Virus record (IMG/VR): IMGVR_UViG_3300031669_000016
Span: 1-64,000 of that record
DNA length: 64,000 nt
From: a virus
Reading direction: 5' to 3' (one strand)
Shown: positions 2,237 to 42,097 of the stretch, in pieces
Layout: each line of letters starts with the position of its first letter
How positions within the stretch are numbered: position 1 is the stretch's first letter
Position numbers and translations under genes: made by a program
The notes under the pieces: generated by a model
Databases searched by the model: none
Told to the model about the DNA's origin: nothing
Seen by the model: the letters and a program-made list of their open reading frames with translations, nothing else

Positions 2237-4144
2237 GTGGGTTGTGTGCGATTACCAGAGAGGTTTACGGTCTGTGAACAGGTCCCGCTGAGGGCACTTG
2301 CGGCCAGTGAGGTGGCTGATCTTCCCGAGGGGACCCACTCCAGCGTTGGTGCGCAGGTCCACGTTCTGAGCGTTGGGGAACGCTCAAGGAAGGGGTGGGC
2401 ACTGGCCGATGAACGGCTTGGTGACGGCTGGCGTGGTCTACAGGGTGGCCACGTCAACATGGGTCATAATCCCGATGATGTCTACGGTTACATTCCGCGA
2501 GTCATCCGCCGTGGTTCCGATGTCCTCGCCAACCTCGCGATCTCGCGCCGTAAGTTGGAGGCGCGCAATCAGGACCCGACGCGGCTGACGACGGACATGG
2601 CCGTTTCTGTTGAATGGACATGGCTACTCGATGGCAGTGCTGTGACGAAAGGCGATAAGAAGTACACCCTGGCCGAGGCTGCCGAGGCCGGCCTTATTGA
2701 TGTTGTCCAGAATCCGACCGCAAAGCTGCCAGAGGTTATCGCCACCGATCCAGACACCACGATTTGGTGTAGTGGTGTCGAGTTCCACGATTTGGCTCTG
2801 GTTGATCTGCAGGAAGCAAATCCGGCGTTTCCATCGGCGCGGATTCTCTACGCCAGCGCTGCCGAACAGGGTCTGGATCCCTCGAAGAGCATGGAGGCGT
2901 TCCTACGCGTCGTCGAGACCGCGCTTGTCGGCAAGTACAAGACCGGAGACAGTTATCCGTACCGTATCTACACCTTCTCGGATGCTGTGGTCTGGGAGCA
3001 GGATGGGAAGTACTGGAGCGCGTCGGTGAGTACTGAGAAGGGCGGCACCGTTGTGATCGGCGAGAAGGCCGAGCTGGAGCAGCGCTTCGTCGAGGCCGCG
3101 GCGGCGGAGCGTTTGGGACGGAAAGGTGGACCGTACAAGGCCGGGCCTGGTGGTGGATGTGTCTGCCCCAAGTGTGGAGCAACGGCATCACATGATGCTG
3201 GTGAGCCTTGTACCGAAACGAAGTGTCCGAAGTGCGGAGCCATGATGGTGCGTAAGGGTGTGGACAGTAAGGCATCACTGGATCCTTCACCGTTTGTAGA
3301 TATCATCTACGGTATGGGATCGACTCCGGCGGCCAAGAAATCGGGACACAAATCCGCTCCGAAGGGGTATCCGACACAACGTTCACAGTACGCGGATCCA
3401 GCCAACTACAAATATCCACTTGATACGGAGGCTCACGCGAAGAATGCCTCAGCAAGGTTCCACTACGCGGTGAGTAGTGGGGAGTACAGCCGTGCCGAAC
3501 TCGTCTTCATGGCGAAGCGTATCGTGAGTGCGTGTCGCCGTTACGGTGTCGACGTGAGTTCTGATTCGCTTGTCGGGAAATATGCGGGACTGAAGCGTAA
3601 GTCAGGTAGTAATGCTGCCATAAACACTATTGACCCGAAAGGGGGTGAAAGCGTGGCTGAGTTGACAGAGGAGAAAGTCCGGGAAATGTGTGCCCAAGCA
3701 AAAGAGGATGGTCGACAAGAGGCCCTGAACGGGCTGCAGTCGCCCGAGTCCGAGCTCCGCAAGCAGATCGCGGATACCGCTGTCGAGGAGTTCAAGGTAA
3801 AGCAGTTGCCAGCCCTTCTGGAAGAGGCGCAGGGGAAGGGTAGGGAGGAAGTCGCGGCCCAGAACGCGGCTGTCGATGAACTCTCTGCTATCCACCCCCT
3901 GACCGATGATGAGAAGAAGGGTGTGGTTGCCGCAATGGTTGCGGGTGAGTTCAACCTCGCGATGGCTAAACTGGAGCGGGAGAACCGGAAGCTGAAAGGT
4001 GAGTTCAAGACTGATCCTCCGGCTGATCCCGAAGCTGCCAATCGTGCCGCGGCCGCTGCCGCAGTTCTCAACCCAGATGGCTCGGGTACCGGTGCTGGTG
4101 CAGATACGGAAGACCCGCCCGCCGACCCTGTGGTGATTTTTTAG
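2237..4144 (+). CDS. prohead protease/scaffold polyprotein with Zn-finger insert
   Basis: AGGAGG RBS; lies between portal and capsid. N-terminal region has HVNMGH and VSVE, resembling herpes/HK97-type protease His/Ser motifs. Also contains a CPKC...CPKC knuckle, a YADPANYKYPLDT module and an acidic coiled-coil C-terminus. Confidence 0.6.
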   Translation: MGCVRLPERFTVCEQVPLRALAASEVADLPEGTHSSVGAQVHVLSVGERSRKGWALADERLGDGWRGLQGGHVNMGHNPDDVYGYIPRVIRRGSDVLANLAISRRKLEARNQDPTRLTTDMAVSVEWTWLLDGSAVTKGDKKYTLAEAAEAGLIDVVQNPTAKLPEVIATDPDTTIWCSGVEFHDLALVDLQEANPAFPSARILYASAAEQGLDPSKSMEAFLRVVETALVGKYKTGDSYPYRIYTFSDAVVWEQDGKYWSASVSTEKGGTVVIGEKAELEQRFVEAAAAERLGRKGGPYKAGPGGGCVCPKCGATASHDAGEPCTETKCPKCGAMMVRKGVDSKASLDPSPFVDIIYGMGSTPAAKKSGHKSAPKGYPTQRSQYADPANYKYPLDTEAHAKNASARFHYAVSSGEYSRAELVFMAKRIVSACRRYGVDVSSDSLVGKYAGLKRKSGSNAAINTIDPKGGESVAELTEEKVREMCAQAKEDGRQEALNGLQSPESELRKQIADTAVEEFKVKQLPALLEEAQGKGREEVAAQNAAVDELSAIHPLTDDEKKGVVAAMVAGEFNLAMAKLERENRKLKGEFKTDPPADPEAANRAAAAAAVLNPDGSGTGAGADTEDPPADPVVIF

Positions 4145-37425: not shown

Positions 37426-38010
37426 TCATGGCTGAAGACGCTCCCTTACACGTTGGAGTCGACGCCGCGTCTTACGCAGCACACGGTACAAGGCGGGATC
37501 CTTGGTTATTTCCTCGCCTGCCAACAAGCGCCCCAACGCATCCAATTCGATGTCTGTGAGATGTGCCTTGATGAAGATCTCCTCCAAAGCTATCCTGTCC
37601 AGAACTACCCGTTCTGGATCTGCCGAGCCATCAACACACAAGGTTTCGCGCTGGTTCTCATCAAAGTCTTCTAGCGCCACGATCTGCGGGATGCGATCGG
37701 TGCGGCTGTCTCGAAAAACTGAGCTGGGTATTCGTATCAGGAAGGAGTGGCGGAGCCGCCATTTCTGTATCGCTCGTGTTGCAGTCTTTTTCAGATAGGC
37801 CCCTTGCTGTGCCATCGGTCGTGTTGTGTCCAGTCGGTTGCGCACCGCATCCATAATTGCTACGCGGCCCACCTGCGCGAGGTCTTCCTGTTTGTCCCGA
37901 TCAGTTGTGAGTCTGCGTGCCTCGCGCTGCAATACCTTGTCGAAGCATGCCAGCCAGTAGTCCAGTACGGCGGGATCGTTGGTGCCGCGCTGTTTCGACT
38001 GACCAGCCAA
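37426..38010 (-). CDS. sigma70-family-like factor
   Basis: EDLAQVGRVAIMDAV resembles region 2; C-terminal helical region-4-like segment. Confidence 0.7.
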   Translation of the reverse strand: MAGQSKQRGTNDPAVLDYWLACFDKVLQREARRLTTDRDKQEDLAQVGRVAIMDAVRNRLDTTRPMAQQGAYLKKTATRAIQKWRLRHSFLIRIPSSVFRDSRTDRIPQIVALEDFDENQRETLCVDGSADPERVVLDRIALEEIFIKAHLTDIELDALGRLLAGEEITKDPALYRVLRKTRRRLQRVRERLQP

Positions 38011-38901
38011 TCAGAACTCACCGCCATCCTTCCACTTCGTGGTGTAGTCAGCACCTACGGTAACTGGCAGTCGGGCCTGCCAACGCCCCCGCCAACGGTT
38101 GTAGTTGAGCGTATACATCAACTGATCGTAGTTCAGAAGGCCGGCCGGGAGCTCTCTGATGCCCAACCCTTCGGCGACTGCACGCGCCTGATCACCATAG
38201 GCAGGTTGGGAACCGGCCGCACCTCCACCATGGTCGGCTCGAATCGGTAAGGTGCGGATGTGCCATCCCGCTGCCAACCACGCACAGCAGACCTCGCGGT
38301 CGTACCAGTGATGGAGGCCGGGATAGTCCTGATCGAGAAGAGTTGGGATTGTGTCGGTACGATAGAAGATGCCGCAGCCGTCAAGAGTAGCCGAAGCCAT
38401 TCCGTCATCAGGTGTCCACGCGCCATGGATGCGCCATATCTCACCGGTTCCGTTGCCCCCCCATTGCTTACCAATCAGACGGGAGTGGGTACCGATACGC
38501 CCCCCATCCGGTGCCAGTCCGAACGCACCGACTAAACCGGCAAGGCCCAGCTTCGCATCTTCCTCGAAGGCGTGTGCGATACAAAGATCCCATCCGACAT
38601 CCCAGATCAAGACATCGTAATGGATGAAGGCGAGGATGTCGGCATCGGTGTAGTCGGCGGCGTATCGGATCGACTCGAAAACGCCCAAGCTTTGATCCGG
38701 CACGAAGTAGCGGGTGTGTCCCCGGTCTTTCGTGATGGTGCCGCAAAGTCCGGCATGCGTTGTAATCACGTCGAGATCAGGGGTGTTGTCGACAACAATG
38801 ATCTCGGTGCCCGAATCGGAAACTGTCCGCACGACCTGAGCAAGACATGCCTCAAGTAGGTCTGTTCGACCAAGTACTGGAATCGCGACTGCGACCCTCA
38901 T
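38011..38901 (-). CDS. glycosyltransferase family 2
   Basis: VAIPV, IIVVDN, FIHYDV, LDG and HWYD motifs. Confidence 0.85.
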   Translation of the reverse strand: MRVAVAIPVLGRTDLLEACLAQVVRTVSDSGTEIIVVDNTPDLDVITTHAGLCGTITKDRGHTRYFVPDQSLGVFESIRYAADYTDADILAFIHYDVLIWDVGWDLCIAHAFEEDAKLGLAGLVGAFGLAPDGGRIGTHSRLIGKQWGGNGTGEIWRIHGAWTPDDGMASATLDGCGIFYRTDTIPTLLDQDYPGLHHWYDREVCCAWLAAGWHIRTLPIRADHGGGAAGSQPAYGDQARAVAEGLGIRELPAGLLNYDQLMYTLNYNRWRGRWQARLPVTVGADYTTKWKDGGEF

Positions 38902-38940
38902 CTAGTCTCACCCCGATGTATCCCACCAACAATCTACTAT

Positions 38941-38969
38941 AGTATACCACAGTACCTACGGGTTGTCAT
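38941..38969 (-). promoter_or_regulatory. sigma70-type promoter of the GT2-sigma-phosphatase operon
   Basis: Minus strand reads ATGACA (38969-38964), 17 nt, TATACT (38946-38941), with a TG extension. Confidence 0.7.
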
Positions 38970-39022
38970 CTTTGCATGCCTAGATCCTACCCATAATCGA
39001 AGATTTGAGGCGAAAGCTTCGA

Positions 39023-39400
39023 CCAGCATCCTCGCGCGCGTAGGAGTGACTGTGTGGTATACCATAGTAATCGTGCCCTCGCGCGCGTGGAAGTAACCAA
39101 CAGTAAGGCGGCAACGGAACCGGCGAGGTCGTCGTGCCCTCGCGCGCGTGGAGGTAACGTGTGGCGCGTTGGGTTTCTGTGGTTTGCTGGTCGTGCCCTC
39201 GCGCGCGTGGGAGTAACGGCCAATATCCTACCCATCTTAGGCAACACATCGTCGTGCCCTCGCGTGCGTGGAAATAACCGCCCTTGTTTCGTCACTGAAG
39301 GCGGTCCAACCGTCGTGCCCTCGCGCGCGAGGGAGTAACCCGGAGGCCGCCAGGAAGAGGGGGAATCCAGAGGTCGTGCCCTCGCGCGCGAGGGAGTAAC
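39023..39400 (-). CRISPR. CRISPR array, 7 repeats of 28 bp (GTTACTCCCWCGCGCGCGAGGGCACGAC), 6 spacers
   Basis: Repeats at 39373, 39312, 39251, 39190, 39131, 39070 and a degenerate copy at 39023. Spacers are 33, 33, 33, 31, 33 and 19 nt. Palindromic core CCCTCGC-GC-GCGAGGG. The two cas-proximal repeats are identical and the most distal one is the most degenerate. Confidence 0.95.
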
Positions 39401-39535
39401 ACTGCCATACCTATCGTCCAAACATGTTTCATCACAATCTCTACCCTCCCTGCGCGCGCCCCGGCGAGGCCGGGGATTAGGATTTGATCCGCGACCAGCC
39501 TTCTCCGGGCTGGTGGCAGGTCGGGGACCCACGAC
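39401..39535 (-). ncRNA. candidate tracrRNA/scaffold plus leader
   Basis: Two anti-repeat segments (39530-39535 and 39442-39459) and hairpins (39494-39514, 39459-39475) between the cas stop codon and the first repeat. Confidence 0.55.
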
Positions 39536-40899
39536 TATTTAGCCCCCACTCTCAACGCTCCAAAGGAGCGGTGGAACCCTCGATAGCCTCCTGATGTATT
39601 CCACTCCGCCTTGCGATAAAACGCCCGCCGAGCGATGTTCACAGCAGCTGCCTCGTCGGCGTCGAAATTGACATCACAAGCCGGACAGTAGAGATCTTCA
39701 CCTTCCCGTTTGGCATCCTCCCCACACCGAGGACAAATCAACGATGAGTAAGCAGCGAAGACCTCGCGTGGTGGTAACATACCAGCCATCCGCAACTTGT
39801 AGCTGAGGATATGACCCATCTTGGCATACTGGGAACGTATAAATGCGCCGCTTGTCTGTAGGTTGAGATCTTCCATCACTACCAACGAGTGGTGCTCAAC
39901 GGCCAACGCAACCAACGCATTGGCGATTGTGTGGAGCATCTGCTCTTGGTGTCGACGCTGCCAGGCTTGACGACGCACATGCCGACCACGCCTCTGTGCG
40001 GCCTGGCGCTTCCGTCCCAATAGGATCTGTAGAGGACGCACGTCCCGACCAAGGCTCCCAACTCTGAGTGGTCGACCCTCTTTGTCTATGATTGCGTATG
40101 CCGCCTGTTTGATGATGCCGCGATCAACTCCAAGATAGGTTTCCTCTTCACCCCGCTCCATACTCTCGACTTGGAACTCGAAGCTTATATGTAGGAAGTA
40201 CTCGCCATCGCGCCGACAAAGGCAGGCACAGCGCGCCTTCCCTTTCGTGAGATATTCCTCTTCGTGCCATATCCCAAACGCGAGTGGGAAACGCAACCTT
40301 GTAGGCTTCTGTGGCTTCGGCTGCACCGGTAGTGATACCACCCACTTCTCGTTGTCGAGTCGTTCGAGAGCAAAATCTCGGGCGCGTACATAGAGAAGCG
40401 GCCTGACAATCTCGCGCTCCTCACGTAGCAGACGGGATTGCCACGCTTGGTGGTCGAATGGATCACCAACCCACTCAGCGGCCTCTGCAAGGGCCTTCTG
40501 GTACCCATCAGACTGATATCCGTACAGTGGTGAGGGGTACTGGGGTTCATCAGTTGCGTCCTCATGGTTCTTCCTATCTTCCCAGGCCTGTCGTAGTTTG
40601 CAGTACGAAACAAGGTTCGTTAGGATATCTGATACTAAGCCGTCATATAGAGCGCTTGGCAAATCCGTTGCTGATAGCAAAGGACGGATTTCCTTCATTG
40701 CATTGAAGGGGCTGGGGAGTCTCTTACCATCGTGGAGATCACGAATCCACAGATCAGCCATGGGGCGGCAGCGCTCCAATGTATCTATATAGGCCTTGCT
40801 GTAACGGGCGAATACCTGGTCTAGGAGGGCACGTTTTCCAGTACCGGGATTGTATAGTTTGAGGATGGCTGTTTTCTGTACGATGACTGTGCACCTCAT
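39535..40899 (-). CDS. compact type V effector, TnpB/Cas12f-like RuvC nuclease
   Basis: 454 aa; RuvC-I LGVDRG, RuvC-II VVMEDL, Zn finger CPRC...CPAC, RuvC-III DADEAAAVNIA; adjacent to the CRISPR array. Confidence 0.9.
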   Translation of the reverse strand: MRCTVIVQKTAILKLYNPGTGKRALLDQVFARYSKAYIDTLERCRPMADLWIRDLHDGKRLPSPFNAMKEIRPLLSATDLPSALYDGLVSDILTNLVSYCKLRQAWEDRKNHEDATDEPQYPSPLYGYQSDGYQKALAEAAEWVGDPFDHQAWQSRLLREEREIVRPLLYVRARDFALERLDNEKWVVSLPVQPKPQKPTRLRFPLAFGIWHEEEYLTKGKARCACLCRRDGEYFLHISFEFQVESMERGEEETYLGVDRGIIKQAAYAIIDKEGRPLRVGSLGRDVRPLQILLGRKRQAAQRRGRHVRRQAWQRRHQEQMLHTIANALVALAVEHHSLVVMEDLNLQTSGAFIRSQYAKMGHILSYKLRMAGMLPPREVFAAYSSLICPRCGEDAKREGEDLYCPACDVNFDADEAAAVNIARRAFYRKAEWNTSGGYRGFHRSFGALRVGAK

Positions 40900-41211
40900 C
40901 TATTTCTTCATCAACCCTCGCTCTTCAAACAGTTTCTTGAGCTGGGTCCGCCACCAGCCCAACAGGCCATCCCGCAACAGCAGGGTGATGAGGCGGGCGA
41001 CAACATAGGGGTGATGCGCCGCGATCCAGATCTGGTGCTGTAAGATCGGATAGGGTTCGGTGTCGTTGCTATGGGTTGCATCGACCTGGGCGGGGATGCA
41101 AACGCAGGCGTTGCAGACCATCGATTGCTTCGACCCATCAGGCCACGTTATCATAACGGTTACATAGCCTTCTTCTTCGAGTTGAACCGCTTTGAACTGG
41201 GACTCTGTCAT
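40900..41211 (-). CDS. hypothetical protein immediately upstream of the cas gene
   Basis: 103 aa; its stop abuts the cas ATG. Confidence 0.55.
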   Translation of the reverse strand: MTESQFKAVQLEEEGYVTVMITWPDGSKQSMVCNACVCIPAQVDATHSNDTEPYPILQHQIWIAAHHPYVVARLITLLLRDGLLGWWRTQLKKLFEERGLMKK

Positions 41212-41867
41212 GCCTCATCTCCCACTACACATCGGCTCGCACCATCCACCTTACTAACCCCGATGATCTGAGCGCTTGACGGTGCGGAGTGATCCTCGTT
41301 TCCGGTGACGACAACGACCTGCATGCCGAGGTCTCTGGAGACACCTTCCAAGAAGTCTTCGATGACGGCGAGCGCACGCGCGCCGTGCACGTTGCGATAG
41401 GGTTCATCCAAGATGAGGACGCGGGGCAGGCGCAGGCGCAACACGAAGACGAGGCGCAACAGCACGGATTCGACATCGAGGACACCACCGCCATGGACCT
41501 CGGTGCCCCTACCCTCGATCCCATCGGCATCGACCGTTTCTAGATGGGCCTGGACCATGTTTCTGGATTGGTCGTACCGAAGTCGGAACTGCGCACCGGG
41601 ACCGAGCAGGATACATAGTGCCTGGGTCAGGAGCGGCTCGATAATGTTCTTCAACCTATCCTGACTCAACGCGGCGGCTTGTTGAAGCAATGTTTGCGCC
41701 TTCAAGTACCAATCTGCTAGTGCTGTTTGCTCTGTGCGTGCGATTTGGTGCTGGCTTTCGGTCTGCTCAAGTAAGGCGCGGCGGCCTCGTGCCTGCTCGA
41801 CCTGGCTGCGGCACCGACTCGCCCGTTGGATCAGGGTATTGAGGTCAACGACCGACAACGGTTTCAA
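41208..41867 (-). CDS. SbcC/Rad50-like ATPase, C-terminal half
   Basis: Coiled coil, then HGGG signature and LILDEP Walker B. Confidence 0.8.
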   Translation of the reverse strand: MKPLSVVDLNTLIQRASRCRSQVEQARGRRALLEQTESQHQIARTEQTALADWYLKAQTLLQQAAALSQDRLKNIIEPLLTQALCILLGPGAQFRLRYDQSRNMVQAHLETVDADGIEGRGTEVHGGGVLDVESVLLRLVFVLRLRLPRVLILDEPYRNVHGARALAVIEDFLEGVSRDLGMQVVVVTGNEDHSAPSSAQIIGVSKVDGASRCVVGDEA

Positions 41868-42097
41868 CCTCCAAGAGTTGGCGTTGGAGTTCGGCCATTT
41901 GCGTGTCGAGCACGTTCTGGGCTTGGTCGCGATGCTCTGGCAACTTGTCGAGTGCGATACCGAGGCTCTGCTGACACTCCGCGGCCTTGACGTGGTATTC
42001 AGCGTCGAGTCCTTGGATTTGAGCGGCGTACTGCGTCTGCTGAGTCTTCGCCCGCTCCAGAGCGGCTTTCTTTGCGCGATACGTGTCTACGTCCACG
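41845..42097 (-). CDS. small coiled-coil protein
   Basis: Likely GTG start (VDVDTYRAKK) after a GGGGTGA RBS, inside ORF 41845..42294. Confidence 0.5.

Follow-up and report, generated by a model that had tools for sequence, protein, structure and literature searches.

The closest described systems are those of Cas12f nucleases and TnpB proteins. In the Un1Cas12f single guide RNA, the first anti-repeat:repeat duplex (AR:R1) lies in the loop of Stem 3, a long Stem 4 follows, and the second duplex (AR:R2) forms the 3' end (PMC8053092). [quoted passage not shown] An earlier note on the DNA analysed here had pointed to two anti-repeat:repeat duplexes in Cas12f and an omegaRNA at the 3' end of its gene, in agreement with both papers. 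After the splitting hypothesis, TranC systems were put forward as transposon-CRISPR intermediates (Jin et al. 2025 Cell, via PMC13565253, bioRxiv 10.64898/2026.03.27.714800); these sources describe some clades as phage-borne, such as CauTranC9, with a tracrRNA thought to be derived from a split reRNA. Cas12r, from Thermus Lalka phages, is a 564-aa effector whose array begins 15 bp after its ORF, with short 29-bp hairpin repeats and 32-33-bp spacers; it is reported to be tracrRNA-independent, and adaptation by a host I-E system has been proposed (bioRxiv 10.64898/2026.04.20.719267).

We analysed a window of 64,000 nucleotides, positions 1 to 64,000 of the 75-kb IMG/VR virus record IMGVR_UViG_3300031669_000016, which carries genes for a UvsX-like recombinase, an exonuclease, a DNA polymerase and a tape-measure protein. 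A compact nuclease gene and a CRISPR array lie on its minus strand in the same orientation, and a co-oriented candidate tracrRNA lies in the end of the gene and in the 134-nt gap that separates its stop codon from the array. The features, listed 5' to 3', are:

39535..40899, minus strand: effector gene, 454 aa, a compact RuvC and zinc-ribbon nuclease, remotely Cas12f-like
39570-39566 / 39560-39556, minus strand: P1 hairpin, CGCUC / GAGCG, entirely within the 3' end of the ORF (RNAalifold)
39547-39541 / 39529-39523, minus strand: P2 hairpin, GGGGGCU / GGUCCCC (RNAalifold, covariation)
39535-39530, minus strand: putative anti-repeat 1 (AR1), GUCGUG, in the P2 loop, complementary to the spacer-adjacent end of the repeat (nt 23-28, CACGAC)
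39522-39508 / 39500-39486, minus strand: P3, a long stem of 15 nt, a 7-nt loop and 15 nt (RNAalifold, covariation)
39476..39485, minus strand: unpaired linker (AAAUCCUAAU) in which a RAAMCY-like motif is conserved (alignment A3)
39475-39469 / 39465-39459, minus strand: P4 hairpin, CCCCGGC-CUC-GCCGGGG (RNAalifold, covariation)
39459-39442, minus strand: putative anti-repeat 2 (AR2), GCGCGCGCAGGGAGGGUA, pairing with repeat nt 2-17 as 13 bp plus 3 bp, with two bulges
39401..39441, minus strand: leader-like, A/T-richer spacer of 41 nt between AR2 and repeat 1 (sequence)
39024..39400, minus strand: CRISPR array of six intact 28-nt repeats (period 59-61 nt), followed by a degenerate copy at its far end

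The stop codon (TAG, 39537-39535) shares its final base with the first G of AR1, and AR2 starts on the last base of P4. Repeat 1 occupies 39400-39373, directly after the last leader base (39401). The two repeat copies nearest the gap are identical and those at the far end have decayed; the leader therefore lies on the gap side. A sigma-70-like consensus, which may not be that of the host, matched no promoter-like site in the gap or the end of the ORF, and its sole match in 38900-39900 lies at 38969-38941 (minus strand), just past the far end of the array and directed away. One terminator-like site was found within the ORF, a frequency within chance expectation. Just upstream of repeat 1 the leader holds a small palindrome, AAAC-N(2-4)-GUUU (39429-39420), which reads AAACAUGUUU in the window and GCAAACGGCCGUUUU at the leader ends of relatives L002-L009 and L020. 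The 28-nt palindromic repeat and 33-nt spacers between 39070 and 39400 have the geometry of a type I-E array, a likeness that has also been noted for Cas12r of Thermus phages. Close relatives of the effector have 36-nt repeats, and their anti-repeats follow whichever repeat is there.

The effector carries the Cas12f hallmarks, a RuvC triad and a C-terminal zinc ribbon (TNB); Pfam reports Cas12f1-like_TNB and a weak RuvC_1. Among 24 homologs, the RuvC acids D259, E343 and D413/D415 are invariant, as are the zinc-ribbon cysteines C389/C392/C405/C408 and the C-terminal residues Y439, F442, H443, S445 and F446, whose codons overlap the RNA. Matches to curated effector models, including the Cas12f models of PADLOC, are confined to the C-terminal half, and the scores fall under every curated family cut-off (in NCBIfam: Cas12e, 88.9 vs 200 bits; guided_TnpB, 70.8 vs 100; Cas12f2, 68 vs 450). 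An AF2 model (pLDDT 81) gave AsCas12f, OsCas12f, CnCas12f1 and SpCas12f1 as the top Foldseek matches, at TM ~0.5 and 13-17% identity; Cas12e, Cas12k and TnpB ranked after the Cas12f structures, although for TnpB 8h1j the TM by target length is similar. Searched against the PDB, the family profile aligned residues 56-437 with CnCas12f1 (8hr5) at E 2e-15. It matched only weakly the Cas12n structure 9j09, Cas12p (E 9e-4) and LaTranC (E 1e-4, part of RuvC only), the last belonging to TranC clade 11 and being the sole TranC in the PDB. The effector is therefore remotely Cas12f-like and belongs to none of the curated families; TranC clades entered this comparison through LaTranC and published descriptions. 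CnCas12f1 and AsCas12f (8j12), the best structural and profile matches, share its RuvC triad, zinc ribbon and approximate size (422-497 aa), but they are only 13-17% identical to it, and the window effector is encoded by a phage, with no cas1, cas2 or cas4 close by. A scan of the neighbouring ORFs found none of these genes and no tnpA. Two other effector identities were considered and rejected: Cas12p ('hacker'), on size, PAM or tracrRNA properties and a weak match, and Cas12r, on the same kinds of property and a weak or absent match, there being no sequence match to Cas12r among the phage records.

Protein searches identified a family of about 25 proteins with 44-61% identity, together with more distant members, and loci with flanking DNA were obtained from one metagenome scan and one viral scan. 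P1 to P4 were predicted by RNAalifold from a plain MAFFT alignment of 12 homologous loci, to which no structure was supplied. Standard pairs fill 94.8% of the alignment cells in these helices, against 31-44% in slid controls. Double changes occur at 15 of the 34 pairs, compared with 6.7 +/- 1.5 in shuffled alignments, none of 500 of which reached that number. The frequent G-U pairs in the helices are compatible with an RNA from the minus strand only. A family-wide alignment raised the count to 29/34 pairs, but was fitted to the model and is therefore biased towards the structure. A search of 38000-42000 against Rfam gave no match at E <= 10.

Each helix contributes to this signal. P2, whose 5' arm is inside the ORF and whose 11-nt loop contains the stop codon and AR1, is paired in 98.8% of cells, with compensatory changes, and distant loci have an equivalent with AGUCACA in the loop. 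A long P3 stem is found in every locus despite differing sequence and length, with compensatory changes at 9 of 14 pairs. In the close clade every P4 cell is paired (100%) and three pairs covary; similar hairpins in distant loci have UUU, UUG, UUC or GCU loops. P1 shows a single compensatory column (CG/GC/GU) in the close clade, where the other pairs are fixed by coding; a Ser-synonymous change is offset there by a Gly-to-Ala change, and the model-fitted family-wide alignment has double changes at all six pairs. We found no further covarying helix upstream of P1. Synonymous sites in the final ~50 codons are more conserved (identity about 0.6 vs 0.35-0.5), which is no more than suggestive because similar short peaks occur elsewhere. 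Between P3 and P4, three loci (L004, L006 and L009) have an extra hairpin, GGCCUG...CAGGCC (A3 columns about 139-160), which shows that insertions can be accommodated in the linker.

These helices refine the structure drawn in the earlier note, every motif of which was found on the minus strand where it had been placed. ACCAGCC/GGCUGGU is present at 39514-39508 / 39500-39494, and the hairpin CCCCGGC/GCCGGGG (39475-39459) is P4. GGAU and AUCC also exist (39490-39487 / 39483-39480), but comparison does not support the hairpin that had been assigned to them, the GGAU arm belonging to the covarying base of P3. Nor can the RNA start at GUCGUG, as had been suggested, because the 5' arm of P2 (39547-39541) and all of P1 (39570-39556) lie upstream of it, inside the ORF.

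The two anti-repeats were examined in an alignment holding the scaffold and the first repeat of each locus. AR1 and its repeat partner are paired in 97% of cells across 10 loci and change together at 3 of 7 pairs, giving four types of partnership (GUCGUG:CACGAC, GUCACA:UGUGAC, GUCGUAG:CUACGAC and GUCGUA:UAUGAC); the complementarity of GUCGUG to the repeat end CACGAC, noticed earlier in the window, thus covaries with the repeat. The segment at 39459-39442, also recognized earlier as complementary to the 5' part of the repeat, behaves similarly: AR2 is 80% paired, with compensatory changes at 9 of 17 aligned pairs. Together, 12 of the 24 intermolecular pairs show double changes, a number as high in 0 of 500 shuffles.

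Energies lead in the same direction. The AR2:repeat duplex of the window has about -28.4 kcal/mol (RNAduplex), whereas AR2 segments of other loci on the window repeat give -10 to -20, and the matrix of cognate and non-cognate energies is block-diagonal over the four repeat types. Dinucleotide shuffles of the window locus averaged -19.6 +/- 2.9, and 4 of 1000 were as good as the real duplex, at -28.3 kcal/mol in this test; the exact AR1 6-mer arose in 48/1000, and AR1 and AR2 together in 1/1000. Co-folding with the repeat (RNAcofold), a check proposed in the earlier note, placed the AR2 duplex in the minimum-energy structure. The scaffold pairs with 22 of the 28 bases in the window repeat. RNAduplex applied to the whole scaffold did not separate cognate from non-cognate repeats, the RNA being G+C-rich, and the AR1 and AR2 tests were anchored on landmarks in its place.

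We conclude, with a probability of roughly 85%, that 39570-39442 holds the tracrRNA gene of a miniature, Cas12f-like type V CRISPR system carried by a phage. The earlier note's candidate, a tracrRNA that has two anti-repeat segments and lies between the cas stop codon and the array, is supported by a conserved structure and by covariation of both anti-repeats with the repeat; on this comparative evidence, the region very probably specifies an RNA that grips each repeat at two places. The predicted RNA would cover at least 39570-39442 and fold as P1, P2, P3 and P4. The P2 loop would offer AR1 to the last six bases of the repeat, which immediately precede each spacer, in a pseudoknot-type contact, and AR2 at the 3' end would bind the 5' two-thirds of the 28-nt repeat, in competition with the palindromic hairpin of the repeat itself. 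The resulting tracrRNA:crRNA duplex would be the scaffold bound by the 454-aa nuclease, whose RuvC site would cut DNA matching the spacer. Because its 5' helices are inside the ORF and the gap has no promoter-like site, the RNA probably comes from read-through of the effector transcript and is then processed, as an omegaRNA is. It would act in trans on every repeat, and on repeat 1 a cis fold may also form.

We compared the arrangement of scaffold and array across the family. All close loci with enough downstream DNA have the gene, then the conserved block, then a co-oriented array. A covariance model built from homologous loci, another check proposed beforehand, was trained on the close clade and recovered the scaffold beside effectors only 29-35% identical, with E-values of 3e-10 (L025), 1e-9 (L024), 6e-6 (L012), 5e-5 (L013) and 3e-4 (L017); it also detected the scaffold at L026 and L082. 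Scans of IMG/VR with DNA patterns (the P4 palindrome; the P2/AR1 motif) gave chance matches only.

Three further arrangements were found among these relatives. In L013 and L081, which are one contig, a 4-nt loop, UGGG, connects AR2 (CACUGCAAC) with the first repeat, GUUGCAGUG (L013:4540-4575), and the first unit of that array is therefore a ready-made single guide. In L026 (443-479) and L084 (411-447), the scaffold is followed by a single repeat, with no second copy anywhere in either locus at up to 14 mismatches; L025 looks the same (about 2040-2075), with only ~200 nt beyond the repeat. Scaffold plus solo repeat, as in L026, L084 and apparently L025, is an omegaRNA-like single-guide arrangement. 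The would-be guide of L084 overlaps the start of the next ORF. In the clade of L017, L018 and L082, the array begins 66-67 nt past the ORF, and the scaffold module, with the P2/AR1 hairpin, P4 and a GCAAC anti-repeat, lies 3' of the array (L017:4760-4901; L018, about 2350; L082:4626-4772). A module in that position is hard to read as a leader or terminator and speaks for action in trans.

These arrangements bear on what else the region might be. It could be a guide scaffold that works in cis only, the 5' part of one transcript that folds onto repeat 1 as an omegaRNA or natural sgRNA does, so that the leader-proximal spacer alone would be used efficiently. Scaffold and array are co-oriented and AR2 is just 41 nt from repeat 1, the 4-nt loop of L013/L081 and the solo repeats of L026, L084 and perhaps L025 fit such a reading, and the omegaRNA itself has been described as a natural sgRNA (PMC10097598). 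We nevertheless consider it unlikely, as the six intact repeats of the window all retain the bases targeted by AR1 and AR2, and the modules of L017, L018 and L082 come after the array and cannot fold on the first repeat as a 5' extension.

A tracrRNA is also to be preferred over two readings in which the complementarity has no function as an anti-repeat. One takes the region as a CRISPR leader joined to terminator hairpins of the effector gene, its match to the repeat having arisen by chance in G+C-rich DNA. In its favour, the region sits where a leader would, its hairpins are rich in G+C and the whole-scaffold energies fail to distinguish repeats; but neither P3 nor P4 is followed by a U-tract in the window sequence, AR1 and AR2 each covary with the repeat, their joint occurrence has a chance of about 1/1000 at the window locus alone, and other loci carry the module downstream of the array. 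We regard this reading as highly improbable. Slightly more improbable still is that AR2 is a decayed partial extra repeat at the leader end. The idea arises from the palindromic core of the window repeat, through which AR2 (GCGCGCGCAGGG...) also resembles the 3' arm of the repeat, and the distinction between an anti-repeat and a repeat copy rests on loci with non-palindromic repeats. In these (L006, L007, L009 and L022), the segment is complementary to the repeat and not similar to it, and compensatory changes follow the repeat; in the window itself, AR2 pairing extends across the non-palindromic 5' flank of the repeat (UAC:GUA).

The design of the predicted tracrRNA matches those of known Cas12f and TnpB guide RNAs. 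Like the RNA of Un1Cas12f1 (Cas14a), it is encoded between effector and array and has its parts in the order P2(AR1)-P3-AR2, and AR:R1 contacts the guide-adjacent repeat bases in both. It differs in having no sequence similarity, an extra P4 before AR2, 5' helices that overlap the ORF, and a repeat of only 28 nt that is almost wholly paired (22/28); the effectors are about 15% identical. As in the TnpB omegaRNA (reRNA), the 5' part lies in the ORF, here P1 and the 5' arm of P2 with the stop codon in the P2 loop, a pseudoknot is formed from bases just 5' of the guide, and the last stem is the equivalent of R:AR2. The relatives with a scaffold and single repeat (L026, L084 and apparently L025) resemble this system further. 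The window locus, in contrast, has a multi-spacer array (six repeats and a degenerate copy) behind a 41-nt leader in place of a single contiguous guide, its effector scores 70.8 bits against the guided_TnpB cut-off of 100, and no tnpA lies among the ORFs scanned.

Other compact systems share single traits with the locus. TranC systems also combine a compact TnpB-like effector with a short array and no adaptation genes. Cas12n, too, has a tracrRNA encoded in the 3' coding region of the effector; the overlapped codons specify a dispensable, unstructured tail in Cas12n but a conserved C-terminal motif here. Cas12r is likewise a phage-encoded compact type V effector in a replication module with no adaptation genes, and its short hairpin repeats have a counterpart in the window.

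The earlier note had suggested an intermediate between omegaRNA and tracrRNA. The arrangements of the relatives fit that suggestion, although the concept of RNA splitting was already published. We propose tentatively, as a possibility we would not favour over its negation, that the living loci of one phage-associated effector family preserve successive stages in the splitting of an omegaRNA into tracrRNA and array, and that the window anti-repeats were retuned. Under this proposal, a scaffold with a solo repeat (L026, L084, apparently L025) would represent the first stage. In the second, a 4-nt loop would link the scaffold to an array (L013/L081); in the third, that of the window, a leader would separate the two; and in the fourth, the tracrRNA would have moved to a position 3' of the array (L017, L018, L082). 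On the window branch, the anti-repeats would have been retuned to a repeat that is short (28 nt), palindromic and similar to those of type I-E; if true, such retuning could let the phage borrow the adaptation machinery of its host.

Comparison alone has here defined the probable guide RNA of a 454-aa RNA-guided nuclease, in enough detail for the design of a single guide, a scaffold of about 110-135 nt plus repeat, with which to test the enzyme. The locus would represent an additional lineage carried by phages, one whose tracrRNA, in the manner of an omegaRNA, has kept its overlap with the nuclease gene. The several scaffold and array arrangements of its relatives are relevant to the published model in which type V CRISPR arose through RNA splitting.

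A distant homolog is also present in cultured phages. Full-length effector homologs at 27% identity occur in 182 records of phages of Salinibacter ruber M8, whose isolation paper is without mention of a phage-borne CRISPR system (PMC11631230). Having both the homolog and an array of their own, these phages offer a laboratory system. In Salinibacter phage 2_14 (L161, OR896240.1), the homolog spans 1339-2841 and the array 3394-3811; the 30-nt repeats of the array end in GCUGAAAG and begin about 550 nt downstream of the homolog.
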